A DNA stretch of 35,205 nucleotides from UHGV virus genome UHGV-0178511; one strand, written 5' to 3'. A program made the translations under genes and the position numbers. How positions within the stretch are numbered: the first letter of the stretch is position 1; each line of letters starts with the position of its first letter. Source of the stretch: a virus. This document shows positions 833-12,110 of this stretch, one piece after another. The notes beneath the pieces were generated by a model, which did no database searches, was not told the origin of the DNA, and saw nothing but the letters and a program-made list of their open reading frames with translations.

Positions 833-1025
833 TCTGCTTTTCCTGCATCAGGAGAAAGACAATCATGGCGGCGCGGATACTTCCGGTATCTTTTTACGCG
901 ATATTCCCCTTCAATGGCACATACAAGAAGAGAGCCATCAACAGGAGTGATTGAGGAATCGACAACCAGCAACGCTTAATTATCTATAGTGTCGTATTTG
1001 CTTCATAAAATATGGCGAATAACAC

Positions 1026-1059
1026 AAAGCCCGCAGCAGCTCATTGTGCGGGCTTTTCT
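1026..1059. terminator. Candidate bidirectional intrinsic terminator
   Basis: Perfect 10-bp stem aaagcccgca/tgcgggcttt followed by a T-rich tract, just downstream of the minus-strand 1126-1740 gene. Confidence 0.4.
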
Positions 1060-1125
1060 TATACCTACTTCCTAGAGATAATTCTATGGAGGCATTAAAT
1101 CAATACTGTCATTGGTAATATCATA

Positions 1126-1740
1126 TTATCTAAAAGTCTTTCCACTTTTAACATCTAGGTATATTCTGTTCGACAACGTCATTCCTCCGCAATATGTGAA
1201 ATAGATGTTTTCACCCTTATTGCTTGATGCCATCCACCCTCCGATTTCCTTAAAATCGCTTTCCGTGCAGACCCCTTCATTTATTAACTTCCTAGCTGCC
1301 GAAGAAAACTCTTTTTTGTATATACGGTAGTCATCAGATCCTTTGATTAAAGTATCATCTCCGCTCGCATTTTCAGCAGGATCTGATGGCCTTTCACTGC
1401 TAAGATCACTAAGTTTAACCCATTCTGAAAACTTGCCATTAACGATTCCATTTTTTCTTGTGCAGGATTTATTACCTTCTTTAATATATTCGCTTTCCCC
1501 TCCAACACATGAGGCTGAATATGGCTCAGTTATACGAACCCATTCACCTTTTTTTTCTAGAAAATCTACGCCTTCCCTGAAAAATAGTTTCCCAGCCACT
1601 CCACATTTACTTGAAGGGCAGGTATGTCTTTCCGTTCGATCAACAACAACCCATAGTTTTGATTCATTTTTTGCCATTGCCGATGGTATTTGAGATGAGA
1701 CAATTAACGTAAGCCCTAAAATTAGTATTGATTTTTTCAT
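1126..1740 (-). CDS. Secreted Cys-rich protein with N-terminal signal peptide; moron-like accessory gene
   Basis: N-terminus MKKSILILGLTLIVSSQIPSAMA|KNE is a typical signal peptide with AxA site; visibly AT-rich relative to neighbours; AAGGA RBS; hairpin downstream. Confidence 0.6.
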   Translation of the reverse strand: MKKSILILGLTLIVSSQIPSAMAKNESKLWVVVDRTERHTCPSSKCGVAGKLFFREGVDFLEKKGEWVRITEPYSASCVGGESEYIKEGNKSCTRKNGIVNGKFSEWVKLSDLSSERPSDPAENASGDDTLIKGSDDYRIYKKEFSSAARKLINEGVCTESDFKEIGGWMASSNKGENIYFTYCGGMTLSNRIYLDVKSGKTFR

Positions 1741-2038
1741 TGTAATTTCCTTTTACTTTTTACAAAGCGTTTAATCATGGCTGATTATCTCTAAGTGTAG
1801 TAACAGCCTTGTGCGAAACATGTTACCAAATCGCCATTTCAGTGTATCCGCAGTTAGGCTGCCACTTCAAGGATTCCTAATTACATGGTACGTAAGCGTA
1901 AAATCCCGTTGGTTGGCGGGTAATAACTCTGATCAAATCTCCCTTGTCTTTTGCTCTTACGTATGCAGCTCTTGTGTATTCAACCCAGGCCTCCAGTTCA
2001 GCAATACGCTTACTTCCATCCGAGATAACACCTTCTAC

Positions 2039-2290
2039 TCACGCTGCTCGTTGAGTTTTGATTTTTGCTGTCTCCAGCTCAACACGCAGTTTCCCCACCG
2101 TTAGCGCAATATCCTCGTTCTCCTGGTCGCGGCGTTTGATGTATTGCTGGTTTCTTTCCCGTTCATCCAGCAGTGTCAGCACAATCGATGGTGTTACCAG
2201 CTCATGGAAAAGGTTCGCGTCAAATCCCCAGTTGTCAGGCATTGCCTGCTCTGCCGCTTCACGCAGTGCCTGAGAGTGAATTACGCTCAC
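2039..2290 (-). CDS. Hypothetical protein (ea-region)
   Basis: 83-aa ORF; stop overlaps the upstream gene start (ATGA coupling). Confidence 0.45.
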   Translation of the reverse strand: MSVIHSQALREAAEQAMPDNWGFDANLFHELVTPSIVLTLLDERERNQQYIKRRDQENEDIALTVGKLRVELETAKIKTQRAA

Positions 2291-3251: not shown

Positions 3252-3922
3252 TGCTCCCCAAATACAAAACCAATTTCAGCCAGTGCCTCGTCCATTTTTT
3301 CGATGAACTCCGGCACCATCTCGTCAAAACTCGCCATGTACTTTTCATCCCGCTCAACCACGACATAATGCAGGCCTTCACGCTTCATACGCGGGTCATA
3401 GTTGGCAAAGTACCAGGCATCTTTTCGCGTCACCCACATGCTGTACTGCACCTGGGCCATGTAAGCCGACTTTATGGCCTCGAAACCACCGAGCCGGAAC
3501 TTCATGAAATCCCGGGAGGTAAACGGGCATTTCAGCTCAAGGCCATTGCCGTCACTGCATAAACCATCGGGAGAGCAGGCGGTACGCATACTTTCGTCGC
3601 GATAGATGATCGGGGATTCAGTAACATTCACGCCGGAAGTGAATTCAAACAGAGTTCTGGCGTCGTTCTCGTACTGTTTTCCCCATGCCAGCGCCTTAGC
3701 ATTAACTTCCGGAGCCACACCGGTGCAAACCTCAGCCAGCAGGGTGTGGAAGTAGGACATTTTCATGTCAGGCCACTTTTTTCCGGAGCGGGGTTTTGCT
3801 ATCACATTGTGAACTTCTGAAGCGGTGATGACGCCGAGCCGTAATTTGTGCCACGCATCATCCCCCTGTTCGACAGCTCTCACGTCGATTCCGGTACGCT
3901 GCAGGATAATGTCCGGTGTCAT
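3242..3922 (-). CDS. exo: Lambda Exo (Red alpha) 5'-3' exonuclease
   Basis: 226 aa, [40 protein letters not shown]...; recalled as near-identical to lambda Exo. Confidence 0.95.
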
Positions 3923-4704
3923 GCAGCCACCTTCTGCTCAGTGGCTTTCTGTTTCAGGAATCCAAGAGCTTTCACTGCTTCGGCCTGTGTCAGTTCTGAC
4001 GATGCGCGAATGTCGCGGCGAAATATCTGGGAACAGAGCGGCAATAAGTCGTCATCCCATGTTTTATCCAGGGCAATCAGCAGAGTGTTAATCTCCTGCA
4101 TGGTTTCATCGTTAACCGGAGTGATGTCGCGTTCCGGCTGACGTTCTGCAGTGTATGCGGTATTTTCGACAATGCGCTCGGCTTCATCCTTGTCATAGAT
4201 ACCAGCAAATCCGAAGGCGAGACGGGCACACTGAATCATGGCTTTATGCCGTAACATCCGTTTGGGATGCGACTGCCACGGCCCCGTGATTTCTCTGCCT
4301 TCGCGGGTTTTGAATGGTTCGCGGCGGCATTCATCCATCCACTCGGTAACGCAGATCGGATGATTGCGGTCCTTGCGGTAAATCCGGCATGTGCAGGATT
4401 CATTGTCCTGCTCAAAGTCCATGCCATCAAACTGCTGGTTTTCATTGATGATACGGGACCAGCCATCAACGCCCACCACCGGAACGATGCCGTTCTGCTT
4501 GTCAGGGAAGGCGTAAATTTCTTTCGTCCACGGATTAAGGCCGTACTGGTTGGCGACGATCAGCAATGCGATGAACTGCGCATCGCTGGCATCACCTTTA
4601 AATGCCGTCTGGCGAAGAGTGGTGATCAGTTCCTGTGGGTCGACAGAATCCATGCCGACGCGTTCAGCCAGCTTCCCAGCCAGCGTTGCGAGTGCTGTAC
4701 TCAT
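3919..4704 (-). CDS. bet: Lambda Bet (Red beta) single-strand annealing protein
   Basis: 261 aa, [37 protein letters not shown]...; overlaps exo start by 4 bp. Confidence 0.95.
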
Positions 4705-5224: not shown

Positions 5225-5357
5225 TTTTTGGGACTCCTGGCTGATTAAGTATGTCGATAAGGCGTTTCCATCCGTCACGTAATTTACGGGTGATTCGTTC
5301 AAGTAAAGATTCGGAAGGGCAGCCAGCAACAGGCCACCCTGCAATGGCATATTGCAT
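5193..5357 (-). CDS. cIII: CIII (FtsH inhibitor, stabilises CII)
   Basis: 54-aa ORF below the track's 60-aa cutoff: [54 protein letters not shown]; ATG at 5357-5355, stop at 5195-5193, overlapping kil. Confidence 0.8.
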   Translation of the reverse strand: MQYAIAGWPVAGCPSESLLERITRKLRDGWKRLIDILNQPGVPKNGSNTYGYPD

Positions 5358-5429
5358 GGTGTGCTCCTTATTTATACATAACGAAAAACGCCTCGAGTGA
5401 AGCGTTATTGGTATGCGGTAACGCCGCGC

Positions 5430-5798
5430 TCAGGCGGCTTTGATAGTCATATCATCTGAATCAAATATTCCTGATGTATCGATATCGGTAATTCTTATTC
5501 CTTCGCTACCATCCATTGGAGGCCATCCTTCCTGACCATTTCCATCATTCCAGTCGAACTCACACACAACACCATATGCATTTAAGTCGCTTGAAATTGC
5601 TATAAGCAGAGCATGTTGCGCCAGCATGATTAATACAGCATTTAATACAGAGCCGTGTTTATTGAGTCGGTATTCAGAGTCTGACCAGAAATTATTAATC
5701 TGGTGAAGTTTTTCCTCTGTCATTACGTCATGGTCGATTTCAATTTCTATTGATGCTTTCCAGTCGTAATCAATGATGTATTTTTTGATGTTTGACAT
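5430..5798 (-). CDS. ea10: Ea10-like early protein
   Basis: 122-aa ORF immediately promoter-distal to cIII, same position and length as lambda ea10. Confidence 0.65.
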   Translation of the reverse strand: MSNIKKYIIDYDWKASIEIEIDHDVMTEEKLHQINNFWSDSEYRLNKHGSVLNAVLIMLAQHALLIAISSDLNAYGVVCEFDWNDGNGQEGWPPMDGSEGIRITDIDTSGIFDSDDMTIKAA

Positions 5799-5816
5799 CT
5801 ATTCATATCCTCACAG

Positions 5817-5844
5817 ATAAAAAATCGCCCTCACATTGGAGGGC
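5817..5844 (-). terminator. Intrinsic terminator in the pL operon (tL-like), upstream of ea10
   Basis: On minus strand, stem gccctc/gagggc with 6-nt loop followed by a T-run. Confidence 0.45.
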
Positions 5845-6058
5845 AAAGAAGATTTCCAATAATCAGAACAAGTCGGCTCCTGTTTAGTTACGAGCGACAT
5901 TGCTCAGTGTATTCACTCGTTGGAATGAATACACAGTGCAGTGTTTATTAGTATGCCTGTCTTTTAACCACATCAGGCTCGGTGGTTCTCGTGTACCCCT
6001 ACAGCGAGAAATCGGATAAACTCTATTCACCCCTACAGAGAGCAAAAGAGAAACGCCG

Positions 6059-6640
6059 ATGAACAACTCATGGTGGCAGGAACTAATGCATTTTTTCCTG
6101 CAAGGAATGACACTTAAACAGTTGATTCATATGCTAATCATCCTGATCATATTGATTATTATTATGCCTGTAAGCGTAAAAGAATGGATAAACCTGCATA
6201 ATCCAGAAATCCTTCCTCATTACTGGATGTATTACATCCTGTTGTTTTGCGTTAGCTATGTGCTTAACGGCGTTGTTAATTCCGCTTATCACGCTGTGAC
6301 TGAAAGAATTGAGATATTCGCTGCTCAGAAGCGCAAATCTAAAGAAGAGAAATACGTGCAAGATTTGTTTGATTCGTTAACTCTTGGAGAAAGAGCGTAT
6401 TTGGCATTCGCTGTAGCCGCTAATAACCAGCTAAAGACAGAAAAGGGAAGCCCTGAAGCAATCTCATTGCTCGAAAAAGGGCTTCTTATTCGGGTACCTT
6501 CTGCTACTGGATATCCTGAAATCGACCGTTTTGTTATCCCGGAACGCTATAGAAATGAGTGCTACATTAGGTTTGCTGGGAAGAAAGACAGTCTTATGGA
6601 TGAACTTATCGCTCAGGATAAGCATGGCAAAAACAAGTAA
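6059..6640 (+). CDS. sieB: Superinfection exclusion protein B
   Basis: 193 aa with strongly hydrophobic segment LIHMLIILIILIIIMPVSV; recalled as lambda/P22 SieB. Convergent with N. Confidence 0.85.
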   Translation: MNNSWWQELMHFFLQGMTLKQLIHMLIILIILIIIMPVSVKEWINLHNPEILPHYWMYYILLFCVSYVLNGVVNSAYHAVTERIEIFAAQKRKSKEEKYVQDLFDSLTLGERAYLAFAVAANNQLKTEKGSPEAISLLEKGLLIRVPSATGYPEIDRFVIPERYRNECYIRFAGKKDSLMDELIAQDKHGKNK

Positions 6641-6656
6641 TTAGCAAATTAATTTA

Positions 6657-6929
6657 TCATCTCGCCGTCAGTTGTTTTGATTTCCGGTAGCCTGCCGCGT
6701 AAATGGCTACGTTTGGCAGGCAAATACTTCCACTGCATTCATCTGCCTTCTTGCAGCGAAGGCTTCCGAGTGATGCTGCTTTGTCTGCTCTGACGCAACC
6801 AGAGAGCTTTAGCGCAATTTTTCGCGCCAGTGCTTCATTACTGCGTCGCTCGGCAATAAGTTCTGCTCTGCGAGCTTTGTAGCGGCTTTTTGCCGTACCT
6901 TTGGATTCTTTCCAGACAATGGTTACCAT
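6657..6929 (-). CDS. N: N-family transcription antiterminator with phage-21-type arginine-rich motif
   Basis: GTAKSRYKARRAELIAERR matches the phage 21 N boxB-binding peptide as I recall it; C-terminus resembles P22 gene 24. Start at the Met before VTIVWKE (ORF extends to 6959). Confidence 0.8.
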   Translation of the reverse strand: MVTIVWKESKGTAKSRYKARRAELIAERRSNEALARKIALKLSGCVRADKAASLGSLRCKKADECSGSICLPNVAIYAAGYRKSKQLTAR

Positions 6930-11069: not shown

Positions 11070-11096
11070 TGACCATCTACATCACTGAGCTAATAA

Positions 11097-11128
11097 CAGG
11101 CCTGCTGGTAATCGCAGGCCTTTTTATT
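11097..11128 (+). terminator. Intrinsic terminator (lambda tR2-like)
   Basis: caggcctgc-tggtaatc-gcaggcct hairpin followed by tttttattt, between helicase and ninB. Confidence 0.6.
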
Positions 11129-11145
11129 TGGGGGAGAGGGAAGTC

Positions 11146-11586
11146 ATGAAAAAACTAACCTTTGAAATTCGATCTCCAGCACATCAGCAAAACGCTATTC
11201 ACGCAGTACAGCAAATCCTTCCAGACCCAACCAAACCAATCGTAGTAACCATTCAGGAACGCAACCGCAGCTTAGACCAAAACAGGAAGCTATGGGCTTG
11301 CCTTGGTGACGTCTCTAGTCAGGTTGAATGGCATGGTCGCTGGCTGGATGCAGAAAGCTGGAAGTGTGTGTTTACCGCAGCATTAAAGCAGCAGGATGTT
11401 GTTCCTAACCTTGCCGGGAATGGCTTTGTGGTAATAGGCCAGTCAACCAGCAGGATGCGTGTAAGCGAATTTGCGGAGCTATTAGAGCTTATACAGGCAT
11501 TCGGTACAGAGCGTGGCGTTAAGTGGTCAGACGAAGCGAGACTGGCTCTGGAGTGGAAAGCGAGATGGGGAGACAGTGCTGCATGA
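11146..11586 (+). CDS. ninB: NinB (Orf recombination mediator)
   Basis: MKKLTFEIRSPAHQQNAIHAVQQILPDPTKPIVVTIQERNRSLDQNRKLWACLGDV...; recalled as near-identical to lambda NinB. Confidence 0.9.
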   Translation: MKKLTFEIRSPAHQQNAIHAVQQILPDPTKPIVVTIQERNRSLDQNRKLWACLGDVSSQVEWHGRWLDAESWKCVFTAALKQQDVVPNLAGNGFVVIGQSTSRMRVSEFAELLELIQAFGTERGVKWSDEARLALEWKARWGDSAA

Positions 11587-12110
11587 CTATCAAATCAAAT
11601 ACGCCATCACACGACAAGGACTGCTGGCAAACGCCGCTCTGGCTTTTTGATGCGCTGGATATTGAGTTTGGATTCTGGCTGGATTCGGCAGCGAGCGACA
11701 AAAATGCTCTGTGCGCTCACTGGCTAACTGAGGCTGACGACGCGCTAAATTCTGAGTGGATAAGCCACGGTGCAATCTGGAATAACCCACCGTACAGCAA
11801 TATCAGGCCGTGGGTGGAAAAAGCCGCTGAGCAGAGCATACAACAGCGACAGACGGTAGTGATGCTTGTGCCAGAGGATATGTCAGTCGGATGGTTCAGC
11901 AAGGCTCTGGAGAGTGTTGACGAAGTTCGCATCATCACTGATGGACGGATTAATTTTATCGAACCATCGACAGGGCTGGAGAAGAAGGGAAACAGTAAAG
12001 GCTCAATGCTGCTGATTTGGCGACCGTTCATCAGTCCTCGACGGATGTTTACTACCGTATCCAAAGCGGCATTGATGGCGATCGGGCAGGGCGTCAGGAG
12101 GGCAGCATGA
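11583..12110 (+). CDS. Phage-type DNA N6-adenine methyltransferase (orphan, Dam-like)
   Basis: NPPY motif (IWNNPPYS); start ATG overlaps ninB stop (ATGA); no adjacent restriction endonuclease candidate. Confidence 0.8.

Follow-up and report, generated by a model that had tools for sequence, protein, structure and literature searches.

A 204-codon open reading frame on the minus strand runs from ATG to TAA and fills exactly positions 1126 to 1740, stop codon included, of the 35,205-nt stretch of viral DNA that we analyzed as a whole (hereafter, the window). As estimated from base composition, the chance of an open frame of 204 codons in DNA of 38% GC is about 1e-6. Full-length homologues, nearly every one of which is exactly 204 aa long, were found at 99% identity in E. 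coli (a cluster of 406 sequences), at 90% in E. fergusonii, and at 60% to 69% in Pseudomonas and Aeromonas. Compared with the copy on a P1-like element of E. fergusonii, nucleotide identity is 91.7%, 95.1%, and 70.2% at codon positions 1, 2, and 3, respectively. A second E. coli allele differs by 9 synonymous and 5 nonsynonymous changes (dN/dS of 0.14), and its reading frame is intact in a decaying prophage in which 3 nearby genes have internal stops or frameshifts. On the basis of the ORF list, the full-length homologues, the identities by codon position, and dN/dS, we annotate the frame as the coding sequence of a 204-aa precursor; it is a genuine gene on which purifying selection acts. Databases name its product “hypothetical protein” throughout, except for a single UniProt entry that reads “SH3 domain-containing protein”, and our literature searches found no paper on this protein. 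It matches the protein family phrog_8310 of PHROG end to end (E = 1.8e-136), which carries no annotation and thus provides a name and no function.

The sequence-only reading of this locus had described an AT-rich gene that is compositionally distinct from its neighbors, has its own ribosome binding site, and is followed by a hairpin terminator, and this description holds. GC content of the ORF is 38.0% (29.8% at third codon positions) versus a mean of 48.4% across the window, equally low values occur in only 0.6% of 615-bp windows, and the 1,015-bp block from 976 to 1990 is the GC minimum of the entire 35 kb. The Shine–Dalgarno sequence AAGGA (1748 to 1752, minus strand) lies 7 nt 5′ of the ATG and is unchanged in the P1-like copies. 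Downstream of the gene, RNA folding, the sequence itself, and a plus-strand scan match point to an intrinsic-terminator-like hairpin with a T-tract (1018 to 1056, minus strand). It begins 70 nt past the stop codon with a GC-rich stem of 10 to 12 bp (hairpin at 1056 to 1026), followed by TTTGTGTTATT down to position 1018; a simple terminator scan reported this stem on the plus strand only. At the equivalent place, the P1-like copy has a different, nonhomologous hairpin and T-run, so that in both contexts such a structure follows no more than about 100 nt after the stop codon.

Window positions 1124 to 1882 are 84.8% identical to the E. fergusonii P1-like phage-plasmid, an 88-kb replicon with pacA, pacB, lpa, a C1-type repressor, a Cre-like recombinase, hot, and humD of P1 type, and identity beyond both ends of this segment collapses to the random level of 35% to 39%. 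This sharp loss of identity on both sides indicates that the traveling unit consists of the ORF together with the 142 nt upstream of it. The latter region (1741 to 1882, minus strand), delimited by its identity to the P1-like copy and comprising the candidate promoter and a leader of about 94 nt, travels with the gene and is 80.6% identical between the 2 contexts, which exceeds the value at third codon positions (70.2%), and identity drops to 35% directly upstream of position 1882. The unit of promoter region, leader, and ORF is therefore a mobile cassette that is found on at least 2 unrelated phage-type replicons. We initially also considered 17 plasmid matches as independent signs of mobility and rejected them as fragments of the same prophage arm captured by IS26 or IS5.

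A consensus promoter scan reported no minus-strand promoter for the 204-aa gene, and a lenient scan listed TTGAAG-N18-TACACT among its best-scoring pairs of hexamers, a weak match with 4 of 6 consensus positions in each element. This candidate sigma-70 promoter (1841 to 1870, minus strand) has its −35 element TTGAAG at 1870 to 1865 and its −10 element TACACT at 1846 to 1841, separated by an 18-nt spacer. The lambdoid and the P1-like copy agree in both hexamers and differ at 6 of the 18 spacer positions, and this is the pattern expected of a promoter, so that we regard the pair as a candidate for the promoter of the gene. A second candidate, GATACA-N17-TGgTAACAT, was not preferred, since the P1-like copy has lost the −10 element of this pair. 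With no coding-strand promoter in the consensus scan, the gene may also be transcribed solely by read-through from pL during lytic growth. An RNA element in the conserved 5′ leader was considered and rejected, since its folding is unexceptional (z = −1.4) and a comparison with Rfam gave no family match; the main stem of the leader is kept only partly in the P1-like copy.

An identical stretch of DNA in E. coli AMSHJX01 is part of a lambdoid prophage integrated beside ybhC. The order on the strand of the gene is cIII, kil, gam, bet, exo, DUF1317, DUF1382, a TraR/DksA-like gene, a truncated ead/Ea22-like pseudogene, the 204-aa gene, an S24/HumD-like pseudogene, two small genes, xis, and int. The remainder of the window resembles P22-type morphogenesis genes as judged from ORF sizes and order only. 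The ead/Ea22-like pseudogene (1991 to 2242, minus strand, from the RefSeq annotation of the identical prophage) bounds the inserted block, and thousands of E. coli prophages match the window only from about position 1991 rightwards. Some E. coli prophages share both outer flanks and carry other genes (DUF551, NinX, and ASCH) between them, which identifies this position as a variable cargo slot. Two mosaic joints were recognized at the edges of the block. On the 3′ side of the cassette, RefSeq and blastn revealed a fragment of a humD/umuD-like (S24 peptidase) gene (872 to 975, minus strand), a pseudogene of 36 codons that RefSeq calls “DNA repair protein” and that shares 86% identity with humD of the E. 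coli plasmid pEcFELIX526.1 and 74.5% with that of the P1-like plasmid. The other is a 69-bp fragment (1919 to 1987, strand not assigned) that matches part of the gene upstream of humD in pEcFELIX526.1 (90% identity by blastn), and this plasmid has an unrelated AT-rich spacer of 800 bp at the place of the cassette. Since both pieces match the surroundings of humD, the block from 976 to 1990 is a mosaic of at least 3 origins. The region is found in 127 to 130 of 5,426 complete E. coli genomes (about 2.4%), with isolates from humans and other animals among the carriers, and, of 50,697 phage genomes deposited, only in that of Escherichia phage Chlobot (PP925838).

Morons in the sense of Hendrix and Juhala are exemplified by bor and lom of phage lambda. 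The 204-aa locus shares with them a foreign composition, an RBS and terminator of its own (the hairpin at 1056 to 1026 with its T-tract), a candidate promoter, a variable slot between rearranged phage genes of a prophage, and an envelope protein as predicted product. Unlike them, it is co-oriented with the early-left (pL) operon, which blurs the definition, its promoter is weak and putative, and its cassette is also found on a P1-like phage-plasmid with relatives in integrase islands. The earlier proposal of a moron that encodes an exported protein can thus be retained as far as a self-contained foreign cassette in a prophage is concerned, and its own promoter is only a weak candidate. Overall, the locus is a fairly ordinary cargo cassette of the moron type.

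The first 23 residues of the precursor (1672 to 1740, minus strand) read as a signal peptide with a basic n-region (MKK), the 13-residue hydrophobic core SILILGLTLIVSS, and the c-region QIPSAMA, followed by KNESK at the start of the predicted mature protein. By inspection, A-M-A occupies positions −3 to −1 of a predicted signal peptidase I site, and homologues have leaders of either the AxA type or the lipobox type at the same place, which bears out the signal peptide that had been noticed from the sequence alone. There is no lipobox in the window protein, in which no cysteine precedes residue 41 of 204, and its match to Pfam LPAM_1 (E = 0.067) is below the cut-off. Without a cysteine at the cleavage site, it is not a lipoprotein, and the mature form of 181 aa (20.2 kDa, pI of 8.2) would reside in the periplasm. 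“Cys-rich”, as the protein had been called, is apt insofar as it has 6 cysteines that are all conserved and occur in pairs, and modest in that they make up 6 of 181 mature residues. We counted the co-occurrence of these pairs across 229 family sequences: C41 and C46 are both present in 108, both absent in 25, and never found one without the other; for C78 and C93, the respective numbers are 115, 23, and 2, and for C158 and C184, they are 226, 1, and 1. Two family members keep the C41/C46 pair without the C78/C93 pair. Together with the export signal, this co-occurrence argues for 3 disulfides that would link C41 to C46, C78 to C93, and C158 to C184.

An AlphaFold2 model computed from an alignment of 37 sequences has a mean pLDDT of 90, with values of 93 to 98 from residue 30 to the C-terminus, and predicts 2 domains. 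The first, approximately residues 28 to 112 (1405 to 1659, minus strand), adopts the beta-barrel fold of SH3b domains in the predicted structure, with an RT loop closed by C41–C46 and an insertion of about 30 residues clamped by C78–C93. The best fold matches of the protein are bacterial wall-binding SH3b domains, cell-wall hydrolases dominate the fold matches overall, and a search of a viral structure library returned only SH3b endolysins. At the sequence level, the window protein scores 16.2 bits against Pfam SH3_3 (PF08239; E = 0.012) and does not reach the gathering cut-off of 27 bits. Relatives with the same architecture do pass it (P0133 with 32.8, P0098 with 30.8, and P0175 with 27.8 bits), and PF08239 is recorded among the precomputed annotations of several homologues. 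SH3b folds can have ligands other than peptidoglycan, and in the present case the modeled fold and its closest neighbors suggest that peptidoglycan is what the domain would bind. Compared with the SH3b domains of lysostaphin, phage endolysins, and NlpC/P60 peptidases, this one differs in that its RT loop appears closed by a disulfide, most family members have the disulfide-clamped 30-residue insertion, the partner domain is no known hydrolase, and the host is a diderm, so that the domain would act in the periplasm.

The second domain, approximately residues 125 to 204 (1129 to 1368, minus strand), is an alpha/beta domain without a family name (hereafter, the C-domain). It is predicted to form two helices followed by a three-stranded sheet, contains the invariant pair C158–C184, and is recognized by the motifs GSDDY...F..AA..LI..G.C..DF.E.GGW.(A/K)S...YFTYCGG...N(R/K)IYL...G. 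It has no match in Pfam, NCBIfam, or PADLOC, and Pfam searches with 26 C-domain sequences at E ≤ 10 returned no consistent family. For the 204-aa protein, PADLOC-DB contains no defense-protein family at E ≤ 1, and a direct phmmer search of the PDB returned nothing significant. Profile matches of the C-domain in the PDB were limited to de novo designed TIM barrels and are spurious, because their small whole-sequence E-values arise from 4 weak repeats being summed while single stretches have E-values of 24 to 61. Kinship with BamE, an idea suggested by the alpha-alpha-beta-beta-beta topology, was likewise rejected after hhalign of the C-domain profile with E. coli BamE gave a probability of 0.1%.

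Among solved structures, the best neighbor of the C-domain is extracellular subdomain 2 of MapZ (PDB 2NDA), at a similarity that is at noise level for a domain of 80 residues. In Streptococcus pneumoniae, this C-terminal extracytoplasmic domain binds peptidoglycan via a polar patch of Tyr and Asn residues (PMC4931243). Both domains are C-terminal and extracytoplasmic, with helices followed by a small antiparallel sheet and a conserved polar surface rich in Tyr and Asn, and we treat this likeness between a model and a structure as a lead and not as evidence of homology.

One might instead suspect a small enzyme that modifies or cleaves peptidoglycan, with the SH3b domain for targeting and the C-domain as a new catalytic module. 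An SH3b domain joined to an effector domain is the standard layout of the cell-wall hydrolases that prevail among the fold matches, polar residues of the C-domain (S135, D136, D137, W169, S172, Y180, T182, N191, and Y194) are nearly invariant across phyla, and the domain is also found alone behind a signal peptide and in tandem. Against catalysis, no more than about 70 residues of the C-domain are structured, no His is conserved in it, and it lacks a Cys-His or Glu-Asp pair of the sort that known wall hydrolases have; both of its conserved cysteines behave as a disulfide pair, and it convincingly resembles no enzyme fold. An unregulated hydrolase in the periplasm would moreover be risky for the host without an immunity partner, and no such partner is seen at about 60 genomic loci (see below). 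Taken together, we consider an enzymatic role quite unlikely.

A profile of the C-domain retrieved 538 representatives of 50%-identity clusters from 1.84 billion proteins, with E-values under 1e-10 for 405, so that the family comprises at least 538 clusters. Almost always, the domain is found at the extreme C-terminus, be it as the sole domain after a signal peptide or lipobox (about 100 aa), in tandem copies, or behind an SH3b domain (about 200 aa); in longer forms, the SH3b domain and the C-domain follow either ankyrin repeats or a transmembrane helix that has a zinc ribbon or coiled coil on its cytoplasmic side. In a crude screen, 97 of 146 representatives had a lipobox or hydrophobic N-terminal segment, and most of the others look like fragments. 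Judged from these sequences, the C-domain is extracytoplasmic wherever the N-terminus is informative, i.e., complete and with an evident targeting signal. By analogy with cell-wall hydrolases, the SH3b domain looks like a targeting module for the C-domain, which is the constant element of these proteins.

Marine Rhodobacteraceae, Vibrio, soil Pseudomonas, and uncultured environmental lineages account for the bulk of the family. Its distant members (30% to 55% identity) come from Rhodobacteraceae, Rhizobiales, Vibrio, Shewanella, Marinobacter, and Burkholderiales and further from Acidobacteriota, Campylobacterota, and Vampirovibrionales. Members from Alpha- and Gammaproteobacteria share about 50% identity, a level that would fit an enzyme too. 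No housekeeping paralogue was found in E. coli and all Escherichia matches are copies of the cassette, so that the earlier reading is not contradicted by homology to a housekeeping protein of the host. The 204-aa homologue of Pseudomonas immediately follows a tyrosine integrase gene in islands of about 5 kb with a few unannotated genes, among which a PHROG scan recognized only a family of transcriptional regulators. The homologue of Aeromonas hydrophila is part of a prophage and located between a Q-like antiterminator and holin/lysis genes, with an R-M system and a Gp49/HTH pair among the accessory genes around it. One distant member, a lipoprotein form, has core genes such as pheST and rplT around it. 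The GC content of the gene is below that of the surrounding locus in 17 of 17 loci, the gap being larger than 5 points at 10 loci and about 1 point or less at 4 (Celeribacter, P. violetae, a Vibrio, and a Shewanella). Clustering of neighbors over about 60 genome loci uncovered no conserved partner gene beyond synteny internal to Vibrio.

We also considered and rejected a polymorphic toxin/immunity pair: none of the best 150 of the 538 representatives exceeds 514 aa, i.e., there are no large toxins among them and the C-domain is not a polymorphic-toxin tip, and no neighbor is conserved over the approximately 60 loci. The sequence-only reading had listed an effector beside an exclusion factor and an inhibitor, a list that is narrowed and not settled by the SH3b domain. 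As a secreted effector, the protein would serve classical lysogenic conversion by promoting virulence or other interactions with an animal host, as might be suspected from the moron position in a prophage, the signal peptide, and the human and other animal isolates among the carriers. Yet the family is mostly environmental, a Sec signal alone gets a protein only to the periplasm of a diderm, and lipoprotein and membrane-anchored relatives favor a role inside the envelope. An SH3b domain that targets the cell wall likewise points to periplasmic peptidoglycan rather than to a secreted effector, and we view this explanation as highly improbable.

If the SH3b-like domain were a module for protein–protein interactions, the protein could bind or modulate a conserved host protein of the periplasm, e.g., a lytic transglycosylase, Tol-Pal, or an outer-membrane biogenesis factor. 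The folds that match best, however, are specifically those of SH3b domains that bind bacterial walls, and a family that spans Proteobacteria, Acidobacteriota, Campylobacterota, and Vampirovibrionales would find few shared periplasmic proteins beyond the wall machinery. This makes such a binder very unlikely in our eyes.

Small exported single-gene proteins that occur without partners and in both soluble and lipoprotein forms are familiar from the lysozyme inhibitors Ivy, PliC/MliC, and PliG, whose folds differ from the one predicted for the 204-aa protein. None of them appeared among its fold-search matches, and the 204-aa protein differs from them by its SH3b domain and by the lack of a sequence match in Pfam, where families of lysozyme or protease inhibitors (Ivy, MliC/PliC, PepSY, and cystatin) gave no hit. 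An inhibitor of another kind could be anchored to peptidoglycan by its SH3b domain while the C-domain blocks an incoming peptidoglycan hydrolase, for instance lysozyme, an amidase or muramidase delivered by a T6SS, or the lysin that a superinfecting phage carries in its virion. Protection of this kind, conferred on the host by the mobile element, would amount to superinfection exclusion or envelope immunity. This possibility has to contend with the absence of any PADLOC or Pfam lysozyme-inhibitor match, with a family that is very conserved when inhibitors of fast-evolving phage proteins usually diverge quickly, with a gene that never adjoins an effector gene at the approximately 60 loci, and with fold similarities at noise level; it seems unlikely to us, if worth keeping in mind. 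At its most far-reaching, the C-domain would be a new extracytoplasmic wall module, widespread in diderms and spread by mobile elements as single-gene envelope protection, that is anchored by SH3b domains and blocks wall-degrading enzymes of phages, T6SS, or lysozyme type, i.e., represents a new class of prophage-encoded exclusion or immunity at the step of peptidoglycan penetration. As a joint claim, this is a tentative idea that we would not expect to hold in all its parts.

Our best reading is that the gene encodes a periplasmic accessory protein that would dock onto peptidoglycan and act alone. A wall-binding or wall-shielding role is the most likely one, held with middling confidence, and the detail of shielding is less likely than the role as a whole. 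Under this model, a cassette of weak promoter, leader, RBS, ORF, and terminator would have entered, through illegitimate or mosaic recombination, the variable arm between ea22 and xis of a P22-like lambdoid E. coli prophage, from which the gene would presumably be expressed, with a possible benefit to the lysogen. The precursor would be exported via Sec and cleaved after Ala23, its mature form would be oxidized in the periplasm by the Dsb system to form the disulfides C41–C46, C78–C93, and C158–C184, and the SH3b domain would then dock the protein onto peptidoglycan so that the C-domain is presented to the cell wall. The C-domain itself is probably a second polar wall-binding surface that may shield or mark the sacculus. 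The protein would thereby work without a partner gene and on a target that is common to diderm bacteria.

The real novelty at this locus is the unnamed yet widespread C-domain, and the remainder is of a well-known kind, i.e., prophage cargo that encodes an envelope protein. Whether a lysogen withstands other phages, competitors, or host defenses often depends on such cargo, and the gene described here or its relatives ride on lambdoid prophages, P1-like phage-plasmids, an Aeromonas prophage, and Pseudomonas integrase islands. Should the C-domain turn out to bind or protect peptidoglycan, a function would be assigned to a large number of exported proteins now called “hypothetical”, and a simple one-gene envelope trait that is spread by mobile elements would be defined.

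In the E. coli PSS-13 copy of this prophage arm (L095), which is 95.7% identical, three small neighbouring genes (L095:688-855, 1395-1733 and 3803-3993) carry internal stops or a frameshift. Despite this damage around it, the 204-aa gene is intact, which suggests that it is retained while the prophage decays. Between the candidate promoter and the ribosome-binding site of the gene lies a leader of around 94 nt (window 1741-1834, minus strand), and its identity between the lambdoid copy and the P1-like copy from the E. fergusonii phage-plasmid exceeds that of synonymous sites (80.6% across the conserved 5' region that includes the leader vs. 70.2% at third codon positions). A search of the leader against Rfam gave no match, its predicted folding is unexceptional, and the main stem is only partly kept between the two copies.

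Relative to the cassette, humD sequences lie on different sides in the lambdoid prophage and the P1-like plasmid: downstream of the 204-aa gene, the former has a humD-like fragment (window 872-975), whereas the latter has an intact humD upstream of the gene (counterpart region L096:3820-3921). In the E. coli plasmid pEcFELIX526.1, humD is instead preceded, at the position of the cassette, by an unannotated AT-rich spacer (800 bp, 39% GC; L099:5239-6041), and the humD-proximal end of this spacer, TACTGTATGTATATACAGT, looks like a LexA (SOS) box. On the E. fergusonii plasmid itself (NZ_CP099330.1), accessory genes adjoin the cassette on the opposite strand (L096:4956-7774, also L098:3634-6452) and encode a Tad2-like (DUF2829) protein, a dUTPase, and three unannotated products. 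This block, flanked by humD and a Cre-like recombinase, appears to serve the phage-plasmid as a region for cargo or counter-defence.

The window contains another AT-rich block at 5300-6700 (GC about 0.40), in which ORFs of 122 aa (window 5430-5798, minus strand) and 193 aa (window 6059-6640, plus strand) are annotated in the identical prophage of E. coli AMSHJX01 as a DUF2528 protein and superinfection exclusion protein B, respectively.

Homologues in Pseudomonas reside on small islands of around 5 kb (L002:6402-12411, L007:537-6065 and L011:6411-11788), always with a tyrosine integrase of 424-499 aa immediately upstream. Unannotated genes of around 105, 130, and 335 aa recur in these islands, and the slot just after the homologue is variable, encoding a 208-aa, a 236-aa, or an HNH protein. 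Among the island genes, a transcriptional regulator was the sole family recognised using PHROGs; the islands may be satellites or minimal integrative elements. The Aeromonas hydrophila homologue is located within a late-region accessory cluster of a prophage (L005:13705-15705 and 11087-11751) that also carries an Eco29kI-like restriction enzyme with a cytosine methylase as well as a Gp49/HTH (HigB/HigA-like) pair.

Some members of the family sharing the unnamed C-terminal domain of the 204-aa protein show variant architectures (P0100, P0114, P0135 and P0143). One subfamily of 185-211 aa has neither signal peptide nor SH3b domain; in their place, a charged coiled-coil segment at the N-terminus and a single transmembrane helix precede the C-terminal domain. 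In another, a zinc ribbon is followed by a transmembrane helix and then by SH3b and the C-terminal domain. These subfamilies may represent signalling or anchoring variants of one extracytoplasmic module.
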